A stretch of 64,000 nucleotides of DNA from Owenia fusiformis (taxonomy: Eukaryota). The stretch lies in NCBI GenBank assembly GCA_903813345.2, contig CAIIXF020000001.1, positions 1,736,001-1,800,000 on the forward strand, written 5' to 3'. Below, in pieces: positions 23,700 through 26,600 of this stretch (within the stretch, counting starts at the first letter, position 1; each line of letters begins with the position of its first letter). A model generated the notes under the pieces. It was not told the origin of the DNA. It saw only the letters and a program-made list of their open reading frames with translations, and did no database searches. A program made the translations under genes and the position numbers.

Positions 23700-26600
23700 T
23701 CAGACTCCATAGTGCGTGGCCAGCCTCTCCCGGAGTGGCAGCGGAAACTGGTCGGAAAATCTCTTCCAGTTTTCCTCTCCTACTTGGTTCTTAAAGCCAT
23801 GAAGAATCTACAATAAGGAAGAAGAAAAGCTGAAACTAAGATCAGATTGCAAGAAGTGTAAAGTTGAGCATGTAAGGTGGCATTGTTCAGAGTACGAATA
23901 CAGTATCAAAGACACAGAGTCTCATTAGGTAGAGAAGTATCATCATGACAAGCCAAATATGCTCTAATTAACAAATTATGATGGATAATCATTTTACAGG
24001 TTTAAAACAGGTTTGATCCAAACTTTAATGTAAGGTATTAGATCTGATCGCAATTTTGCGTACCTTGTAAAACATTTCTTTCAAATCAGGCTTCGGGTTT
24101 ACCCAGGATGCAACAGCATCACAAAAGAAAATGAAATCTTGTACGATTCCACCAGGATTCACTCCAATCATCAGACAGATGCCGCGGAACGCAGAGTCCT
24201 TCTCATCGTTGTCCCGAATGTTGCGGAGGGACGTACACCTAATGGAACACAGTGATATAATGTATAGAGTTTGGATAAGTTGGGGAGTAGGCTTTGATAA
24301 AGGTATTCACAAAGTAAAGGTTTATAATCCAACAACCTTTACACTCAACATTTGACAACATTACTACTGCAGAATGCACTCATAATACAAAGATTTTATA
24401 GAAATGATAAAACACTCAACATTTTGTTAATTTAAATGAAAAGAACATCTCTGCCCTTGTACAAAAACATAAATGGTATATGTATATAAAACTGAGTGTG
24501 TTGTACAAACATAGATAAACATGATTAAATTGTATGTATGTCTAATAAATAAAGTTGCAAGAGAAATAAATACACACCACTGACGTATGAACTGCTGCAA
24601 CAGTGGCGCCACCTCCTGGGGACACACTAAACCAAGCCGACCAATTGTAATGGCTATGTTACCATGGTAACAAGACGGGTAGCAAATAATGGGAGAAAAC
24701 AGAGAAAGACAACAAATCAACATAACATGTCAAGCAATGAAATAAATAATGACATATGGTCTAATGGAATATCCCAGAAACACAGAATCACCCTGGAAAC
24801 GTAAAGACAACAGAAAACAATGCATATTACAATTGAACATAAAACACTATTCATAAATGCATTATTTAGTATGTGCACCCTTTAAGTTCCCAGATGACAT
24901 ACCATGATATGGTATAAGGTTCTGGGATAAGCCATGTTTAATACTGTGTCTAGGCTAAGTGAACAGTCAGTGGGCTCTAGTGAGACAACGGTTACACAGA
25001 AGTAGCCCTGCTATAGTTTTAGACAGCTTAAGTAGATATGTTCACTCTAGGCAACTCAAGCAACTTAGGTAGAAAGGGCATGAGCCCACTACAGGTCCAA
25101 TATAAGATCATATACATCATATGTACATTGAGGAAACTTAACAGACAAAAGCATCAAGTGTGAAAAGGTATTATTGATCAATTCAATGTTTCTTTCCAAA
25201 GATAATATGTCGAATGCCTTTGCATTTGTCTGATTTTGTTGCCAAGTAAATTTTCTCAATTTTTTACTCTTATCCAAAGTGCAGTTTATCTCAAAATCAT
25301 TGATATGTCACAATACATTGGTAAAACAAATCATGCATTTTTTAATTGAAGAAATCATGATAAAATAATCTGATAATGGTATACAATCATATATAGCACA
25401 ACATGCCTTACAAGACTTATATTACAAAAGTGATGCTATGATGTCAGTGTTGTTACTAAGGTAACCTAGTAGGGTTGCTATAGAGACATTTACCTGTGTT
25501 TTCTAGGAGAGTTTTTGGTGTGTTTGGTCTGTTGATGATTTCTATCAGTTGATTTAAGACAGCTGTCACGTGTGGACCCATATCTTCTCCTAAACATAAA
25601 TAATAATTTCACACTGAGCTGTTGACTACTGAGGGCCAGTCACAAACAATGGTTGCTTCTCACAACTTCTCGGTGGTGACAAAAACTGACAAAATATTGG
25701 GTCTATGATCCATGAAAGATAGGTTGCTTTCATTGCACACAGGGTGTTAAGAAATCATATCATTCTGATGGCCTGATCAGAGTACGAATACAGTGTCATG
25801 GACCTCTGGGTCTCATCATATTAGAAAAGTATCATCACCTCAAGCCTGACTTATGGAATGTTTAAATTGATGCATCTAAAATCAATTTTGGGCTAAAGAC
25901 ATTATTAGGAAAGTAGATTCTACATGGGTTTATGAAGTACATACCCATCTGTATGGCTATCTCTCCAATGGACCACGTGGCATTGTTGCAAACTGAGATA
26001 AACTCGGGGTTCAAATTCTGCCCTAATATAGGCATGAAATCTGGGATGAACGGCTTGACATGCTGGAAACAGGCTTTTGTGAGGTCACCTAACAGAGCAA
26101 ATGAACTTTGCCGGACTTCAGCCATAGGATCCTAAAAAATGAAATAAAAGGTAGAGAAATATGTTTTGCATTGAAATAAACACCATAACATTCAATCTCA
26201 CATCATATTACTGACAATGAGTTAATAGTATTAAGGTGGTGTACTGATAGCAGTGACCTCCTCAGCAAGCAAAAGTACTAAGGAGAGCACTGGATAGTTC
26301 TGCCATACTACGCTGACGCAAACCCATAAAATAATTCACTTTTACATACCTGCATGCATTGGTAAAGCAGATTGAGAATGTTACTGCTGGCAACCAAAGC
26401 CTCAATGTGTTGTTCCAGTCCCTCAGCCAGACCACTGAGCAGATCCAGGGCAACAATCATGAAGTCCTTGTCTGGAGGGTCATACTGGTCTGGCGTTGTC
26501 ATGTTGTTCTAAAATACACAATCAGCTACGAATCACTACATGAATAAAACATTAGTCACCATAGCAACTCCAACTTTGAAATCAAGAAAAGTAACTCATT

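Follow-up and report, generated by a model that had tools for sequence, protein, structure and literature searches.

In box C/D ribonucleoproteins, 2'-O-methylation falls by an established rule on the nucleotide that pairs with the fifth base of the guide counted upstream from box D, occasionally slipping by one position. In plants, small nucleolar RNA (snoRNA) isoforms are known to acquire a neighbouring site when a duplication is followed by a slight shift of the guide, and an Arabidopsis precedent for such isoforms was reportedly described by Barneche et al. in 2001. SNORD41 (U41; Rfam RF00588) guides methylation of a uridine of human 28S ribosomal RNA (rRNA) called Um4276 (PMC8677024), or Um4306 in the newer numbering (PMC11550049, PMC11542601), which corresponds to Um2729 of yeast, guided there by snR51 (PMC2780460); human TNPO2 hosts both SNORD41 and its isoform SNORD41B, and both are assigned to Um4276 (PMC1636440). 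Pairs of 2'-O-methylated nucleotides (Nm) lying two nucleotides (nt) apart are common in rRNA and are recorded, for example, in Drosophila 28S rRNA (Am3478/Cm3480 and Gm3324/Gm3326; PMC11014333) and in yeast (Gm2791/Gm2793; PMC11542601). Here we describe two putative box C/D snoRNA genes, A and B, in a 64,000-nt stretch of DNA from Owenia fusiformis (contig CAIIXF020000001.1, positions 1,736,001 to 1,800,000; hereafter the window), which lie in introns of a transportin gene beside three copies in the SNORD41 register and whose guide sits two nt nearer to box D. As in paralogous C/D isoforms with neighbouring Nm sites, duplication and a small guide shift relative to box D would have produced a new site nearby; the difference is that here both registers appear to have been kept as separate families in one host gene, across divergent animals.

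Two registers of one guide in a transportin gene

All copies were read on the minus strand, and coordinates are positions within the window. The sequence GTATTCGTACT occurs there exactly five times, always on the minus strand (23891-23901, 25781-25791, 26709-26719, 27933-27943, and 28602-28612). The first two copies, A and B, read ACTGTATTCGTACT-CTGA, with zero spacer before box D; whereas the other three (c1, c2, and c3) read CCTTGTATTCGTACTGT-CTGA, with a GT spacer that gives the SNORD41/U41 register. This is the division into two copies and three that a preliminary description of the window, made from its letters alone, had reported. When one mismatch was allowed, GTATTCGTACT matched six times in the window, against a mean of 0.59 and a maximum of 3 in dinucleotide-preserving shuffles (n = 100); since none of the 100 shuffles reached six matches, the recurrence of the guide in the window is beyond chance. 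The sixth of these, at 4743, is the one with a mismatch; it lacks snoRNA features, and a fuzzy search of the window for the guide with one to three substitutions yielded no additional copies.

Copy A, read from the sequence as an intronic box C/D snoRNA gene in the shifted register, spans 23879-23954 on the minus strand. It comprises a 5' stem GGCTTGT (23948-23954), box C ATGATGA (23940-23946), a candidate D' ATGA (23922-23925), a C'-like TGATAC (23903-23908), the guide CTGTATTCGTACT (23891-23903), box D CTGA (23887-23890), and a 3' stem ACAATGCC (23879-23886), all on that strand. Copy B, likewise read as an intronic gene of this class and register, spans 25770-25846 on the minus strand, with a 5' stem GGCTTGA (25840-25846), box C GTGATGA (25832-25838), a candidate D' ATGA (25813-25816), a C'-like TGACAC (25793-25798), the same guide (25781-25793), box D CTGA (25777-25780), and a 3' stem TCAGGCC (25770-25776). 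Both have the boxes of the C/D class, with RUGAUGA towards the 5' end and CUGA towards the 3' end. The terminal stem of B (GGCTTGA/TCAGGCC) has 7 base pairs (bp), one of them G.U, and that of A, in a reading made by eye, has 4 + 4 bp with a one-base bulge. Each also contains an internal hairpin, of unlike sequence in the two copies (A, GAGAC/GTCTT; B, GACC/GGTC). It is flanked by the D'-like ATGA and the C'-like TGATAC or TGACAC, which are degenerate motifs assigned by eye.

A and B could be aligned solely from the 5' stem through box D. Across the guide and box D, 18 nt (ACTGTATTCGTACTCTGA) are identical in the two, the middle has diverged, and after box C both carry TGATGATACTT(C/T)TCTA, as noticed earlier; the 5' element beside box C is conserved at 15 of 16 positions. 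Their intron flanks gave nothing beyond chance matches of 8-13 nt. With the likeness confined to the RNA body in this way, we take A and B to be old paralogues under constraint and no recent copy. Single-nucleotide polymorphisms (SNPs) in another individual (X1) lay at 23874, 23877, 25732, and 25862, beside both RNAs and never inside them, and were too few to test; X1 resembles DNA (even depth, no splicing) and was used for SNPs alone.

The host is a transportin gene (TNPO1/2-type karyopherin beta2), placed at 23703-45319 on the minus strand by splice joints and homology. Eight spliced exons on that strand (24064-24234, 24574-24653, 25494-25588, 25944-26130, 26349-26508, 27055-27162, 27628-27713, and 28124-28351) came from two raw stranded RNA-seq runs (X13 and X14) and a spliced assembly (X9); their joints are CT..AC, which is GT..AG on the minus strand, and further exon-like open reading frames (ORFs) of the gene reach 44939-45319. 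Compared with PDB, the exon at 28124-28349 matched human Transportin-1 chains with E = 2e-43, and homologues of the host exons were present on other contigs. Each of the five copies lies in an intron of its own, in sense orientation. Copy A is in the intron between exon 24064-24234, whose edge at 24064 is a loose end, and the next exon, ending near 23807, and copy B is in the intron 25589-25943. The two are three introns apart, which fits their earlier numbering as introns 16 and 19, the 5' end of the gene being not fully resolved.

Like SNORD41/U41 (Rfam RF00588; yeast snR51), A and B have the guide core GUAUUCGUACU beside box D, address the same 28S segment by pairing, and are intronic elements of ~60-75 nt in a transportin host gene. 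They differ from it in that their guide is two bases nearer to box D, so that the fifth position pairs the C at +2 and not the U, and in that their 5' half is unrelated to the Rfam consensus. From the guide core (11 nt identical) and the host gene we regard A and B as homologous to SNORD41. The link between the SNORD41 family and a transportin host is common to humans and distant invertebrates.

The predicted 28S site and the recurrence of the shifted register

In the copies with a GT spacer, position 5 upstream of box D is A, which pairs with the U of CAGU*A; in A and B it is G, which pairs with the C of AGUAC*G. Set against a mammalian 28S primer sequence, CAGTACGAATACAGACCG (PMC3433485), the guide of A and B formed 13 Watson-Crick pairs; the canonical copies formed the same number and one G.U in addition. 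On the 5' side A and B gain one pair (C with the G of ACAG), offsetting the pair lost at box D. The 28S stretch containing both the predicted C and the U41-equivalent U would read CAGUACGAAUACAG. Because the 2-nt spacer is missing, the fifth-position rule would move the target from the U to the C two nt 3' of it, as the preliminary description had proposed, and we consider human C4278 (C4308 in the newer numbering) a well-founded prediction of the site.

This C was looked for in the available maps. A human 28S table, in the excerpted part of PMC11550049, gives Gm4228, Um4306, and Gm4370 in succession and none at 4308. In PMC11542601, tobacco Um2732 is equated with human Um4306 and yeast Um2729, and the next plant site is Um2736/2739/2738; the excerpted cross-species table for tobacco, tomato, and Arabidopsis, which for human and yeast holds only sites in common with plants, shows no 2'-O-methylated C (Cm) between the U41-equivalent and the plant site six nt downstream. 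An Arabidopsis table (PMC8583080) lists Cm2683, Um2736, and Gm2792 in succession, with no Cm at the predicted position. The guide AtsnoR68 (At2gCDbox75.1; Arabidopsis 25S Um2736) resembles A and B as a C/D guide on the same conserved rRNA stretch; it differs in its target, a U at +6 from the U41-equivalent position by offset calculation, and in belonging to a plant family, and the likeness concerns target position only. In Drosophila, a constant offset to flanking human sites puts the equivalents of the U and the C at positions 3262 and 3264, and Table 1 of PMC11014333 has no site between Gm3184 and Cm3298, so that by this table flies have neither the Um nor the Cm equivalent. Drosophila names of the form Me28S-U33.. 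and Me28S-C33.. were also considered and rejected, as they gave no text matches and the Table 1 offsets put them in another region. A text search of the literature for the site names Cm4278, Cm4308, C4278, C4308, Cm2731, and C2731 returned nothing on rRNA among the matches listed, and a text search for the strings of guide plus box D returned nothing on the shifted guide. None of the tables examined for human, plants, and fly, the last being the only invertebrate among them, lists the predicted Cm.

Metagenomes were scanned for TGATGA followed, after 30-60 nt, by the 11-mer and then, with 0-3 nt in between, by CTGA, which gave at least 120 loci. Over these listed loci plus the window we counted 136 matches to the guide followed by CTGA, and the figures given here and below refer to the matches and loci listed. 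A terminal stem of at least 4 bp beside TGATGA was present in 70 of the 136: in 34 of 51 with a spacer of 0 nt and 32 of 48 with a spacer of 2 nt (30 GT, one GC, and one AC), but in only 4 of 19 with a spacer of 1 nt and none of 18 with a spacer of 3 nt. When unique sequences were scored at eight fixed stem positions, and at least 7 of the 8 were required to be paired, stems were found in 24/39 for 0 nt, 15/35 for 2 nt, 0/15 for 1 nt, and 0/14 for 3 nt. The 1- and 3-nt matches resemble unrelated coding DNA and served as an internal control. The zero-spacer stems covary, with 13 different stem sequences at 6 or more of 8 positions paired. Snorna-like sequences with this guide, judged by these stems, appear to come in two registers only, 0 and 2 nt.

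Transportin exons, located by local tblastn with the minus-strand ORFs of the window, were found on 23 of the at least 120 loci (L064, which matched a different ORF, was left out). Zero-spacer copies stood on 19 of these 23 other transportin contigs, several of which held two. GT copies were found on the transportin contigs L054 and L073 and a GC copy on L012. Contig L085 held both kinds: two GT copies are followed after 340 nt by a zero-spacer copy, whose terminal stem has 7 bp and whose guide carries a single change that turns a G-C pair into G.U. On contig L052 there is, in addition, a zero-spacer copy in decay, with mutations in box C, in the stem, and at two guide bases, and such joint decay is probably what relaxed selection looks like in this family. 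Nucleotide comparison of one transportin exon divides the zero-spacer contigs into at least seven clusters. Identity is 86-94% between the clusters, ~70% to L085, and ~66% to L012; the window exon is 71-78% identical to all of them. The zero-spacer register is thus present in the transportin introns of three or more well-separated lineages. The earlier idea of a SNORD41-derived family with its own register held up, and the family occurs beyond this one genome.

The zero-spacer register was also found on contigs without transportin exons. On one of them, L032, a plant-type cluster (365-1009, minus strand) with three Rfam matches to snoZ102_R77 has a well-formed zero-spacer copy between two of its members. 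Twenty-eight 5' ends of the GGCATATG type all went with an intact zero-spacer guide; the loci were fetched by that guide, so these two features are not independent. The recurrence of the register, together with the terminal stems found elsewhere, argues that the shifted form is a conserved, separate snoRNA class and no local accident. Selection on the shifted guide, which had been suspected from the two copies in the window, is now indicated by the 18 identical nt between flanks that do not align and by this recurrence.

Weighing the explanations

We favour, at a probability of about 0.6, the reading that A and B work as intronic box C/D snoRNA genes and guide methylation of the C at +2. They descend from the SNORD41 (U41/snR51) family and lie within the transportin gene beside the three canonical copies. 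The RNAs would be freed from the spliced introns, and the core C/D proteins would assemble on both motif pairs, C/D and C'/D'. The 3' guide of each RNA would then pair with the 28S segment AGUACGAAUACAG over 12-13 bp, and fibrillarin would 2'-O-methylate the C of AGUAC*G, with the canonical copies serving the U two nt upstream. As both classes would use the same rRNA stretch, the two kinds of small nucleolar ribonucleoprotein (snoRNP) would act one after the other on a given pre-rRNA. The anatomy of A and B, their paralogy, their intronic position, and the conservation of their register elsewhere are the observed basis, from which we infer processing, snoRNP assembly, and methylation.

A number of points weigh against this reading. 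The RNA data are one. In X13 and X14 the depth was zero in every intron bin holding any of the five copies, canonical ones included, the single exception being a copy-bearing bin into which the start of a neighbouring exon extends and which shows spill-over depth; since the canonical copies were likewise at zero depth, these libraries do not capture snoRNAs and are uninformative on expression. Assembly X9, which is RNA because it contains spliced mRNA, has a single intronic contig in 23800-28750; this contig (25654-25898; depth 5.3 versus 32 for exons) is centred on B and fits, weakly, a protected processing intermediate or a trimmed intron, but its 245 nt are unlike a mature RNA, and by rough estimate the probability of its meeting a snoRNA by chance is about 1 in 4-10. 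The terminal stem of A is interrupted, and its C'-like box overlaps the 5' end of the guide. Rfam, to which the preliminary description had pointed for comparison, gave no matches in the window at gathering thresholds, so that no described family was matched at threshold; its SNORD41 model, for which the gathering score is 41, gave B 31.1 bits and did not list A even at E up to 10. On the same model c3 scored 24.9 bits, also below the gathering score, a canonical metagenome copy (L060) scored 41.2 bits, and the alignment of a shifted copy had a 2-column deletion before CUGA. The register of the family, with the U41 site at the fifth position upstream of box D, is found in c1-c3 and not in A and B; by its own score and register, A and B are outside Rfam SNORD41. 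Since the Rfam thresholds miss genes of the A/B type, such genes are probably unannotated.

The remaining points concern the target and the comparative data. The target sequence was taken from the guides and the mammalian primer, not from Owenia 28S. The metagenome pattern demanded the exact guide, so the guide is invariant there partly through ascertainment, which affects neither the two-register result nor the stems or the host synteny. Contig L032 has a zero-spacer copy of plant type, yet the Arabidopsis, tomato, and tobacco tables are without a Cm there, and either the plant of origin differs from those tabulated or the guide is silent in it. Finally, having a guide does not ensure that a site is modified: in Drosophila 31 of 75 predicted sites are unmethylated (PMC11014333).

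In one alternative, A and B do form snoRNPs but do not methylate the C at +2, acting instead as chaperones of rRNA folding or as competitors that tune the Um, or taking their target from a 5' (D') guide, TACTT(C/T)TCTA. The five copies bind overlapping 28S sequence and so must compete, the 5' element beside box C is conserved between A and B as described above, and the plant-type zero-spacer guide on L032 has no mapped plant Cm in the tables examined to go with it. The part of the 5' element next to D' differs between A and B, though, which leaves no common target at the fifth position from D'. Moreover, zero-spacer copies in other lineages share the register of the D guide while their 5' halves are unrelated, indicating that the selected feature lies in the D guide; and a chaperone role leaves the retention of only 0- and 2-nt spacers unexplained. 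We consider such a non-methylating role unlikely, though it is the alternative we take most seriously. The stability of the RNAs themselves might also be doubted, with A and B being neutral or decaying duplicates of SNORD41 type that lost two bases by chance and make no stable RNA. There is no direct expression evidence, both copies score below the Rfam threshold, the stem of A is weak, and decay does occur in the cluster, where box C of c3 is degenerate. Neutral drift is difficult to reconcile with 18 identical nt across the guide and box D, plus box C and stems, amid randomised flanks, or with the same deletion state on 19 of the 23 other transportin contigs listed and, on L085, right beside canonical copies; and the truly decayed copy on L052 looks different, with box C, stem, and guide all mutated. 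We regard decay as improbable.

The guide core of A and B is identical to that of the canonical copies, and the two RNAs might on that account still direct the canonical Um at the U41 site by a non-standard measuring distance. The U would then pair with the third nucleotide upstream of box D, two positions from the fifth, where slips are occasional and of one position. Three canonical copies already serve this U, and mere redundancy leaves the separate conservation of both registers, in L085 as in the window, unexplained; a non-standard distance is hardly credible to us.

Canonical copies, neighbouring elements, and significance

The three SNORD41-like copies in the canonical register are all on the minus strand. 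Copy c1 (26703-26773) lies in the intron 26509-27054 and has box C at 26767-26773, the guide core at 26709-26719, the GT spacer, and box D CTGA at 26703-26706; its flanks form long outer stems. Copy c2 (27927-27997), in the intron 27714-28123, has box C at 27991-27997, the guide core at 27933-27943, the GT spacer, and box D at 27927-27930. Copy c3 (28596-28663) has a variant box C, GTGATTA (28657-28663), the guide core at 28602-28612, the GT spacer, and box D at 28596-28599; its guide is intact and its terminal stem weak or almost absent, and it may be decaying.

Upstream introns of the transportin gene hold six more box C/D-like elements (29131-32258, minus strand), below Rfam thresholds, which resemble SNORD26 (29131-29194: 41.8 bits against a gathering score of 44), SNORD81, ceN114, and SNORD100. 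Those at 29131, 30719, 31780, and 32184 carry the 5' guide GAACTCTCTC ahead of a CTGA-type D' box. On four metagenome contigs with canonical copies (L011, L035, L053, and L058), no transportin exons were found at the copies; these copies have GTGCA-type stems, and some of the contigs share a sample series with some zero-spacer transportin contigs. The canonical copies of L035, L053, and L058 adjoin elements whose translation resembles that of the GAACTCTCTC family. A zero-spacer element on a non-transportin contig (L027:1842-1920) has an internal part (GAGTGGTA...GACCAACT) like that of the canonical copies of L011, L035, L053, and L058, which hints either that the register shifted more than once or that an old 5' guide is common to both classes.

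Tandem arrays lie at 22482-23419, just downstream of the last visible transportin exon, with a 49-bp unit repeated ~13 times and a 52/78-bp unit repeated ~4-6 times, and at 27161-27559, inside the intron 27163-27627, with a 66-bp unit repeated ~6 times. Many regularly spaced weak matches to microRNA models (mir-9243, mir-3149, and mir-2804) at 53177-54926 were far below threshold and most likely represent a satellite-like repeat, not genes. A long open frame on the minus strand at 61551-63998 is 29-31% identical over ~380 residues to a frame on the metagenome contig L064 and may encode a mobile-element protein.

Maps of rRNA 2'-O-methylation cover merely a handful of model organisms, and the guides described here predict an additional site in a conserved part of domain V of 28S rRNA. 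We propose, tentatively and at somewhat less than even odds, that many non-vertebrate animals carry an old, so-far-unmapped Cm (C4278/C4308), absent from the human and Drosophila lists. The enzyme would be led to it by a sister family of SNORD41, which a 2-nt guide shift inside the transportin gene would have brought forth and which some lineages have kept beside the canonical guide. The zero-spacer guides on plant-type and other non-transportin contigs might point to an origin of the site before animals. For the SNORD41 family, A and B would provide a clean example of how a snoRNA gains a target: its gene duplicates inside one host gene, the spacing then changes by 2 nt, and both registers are apparently conserved separately thereafter.

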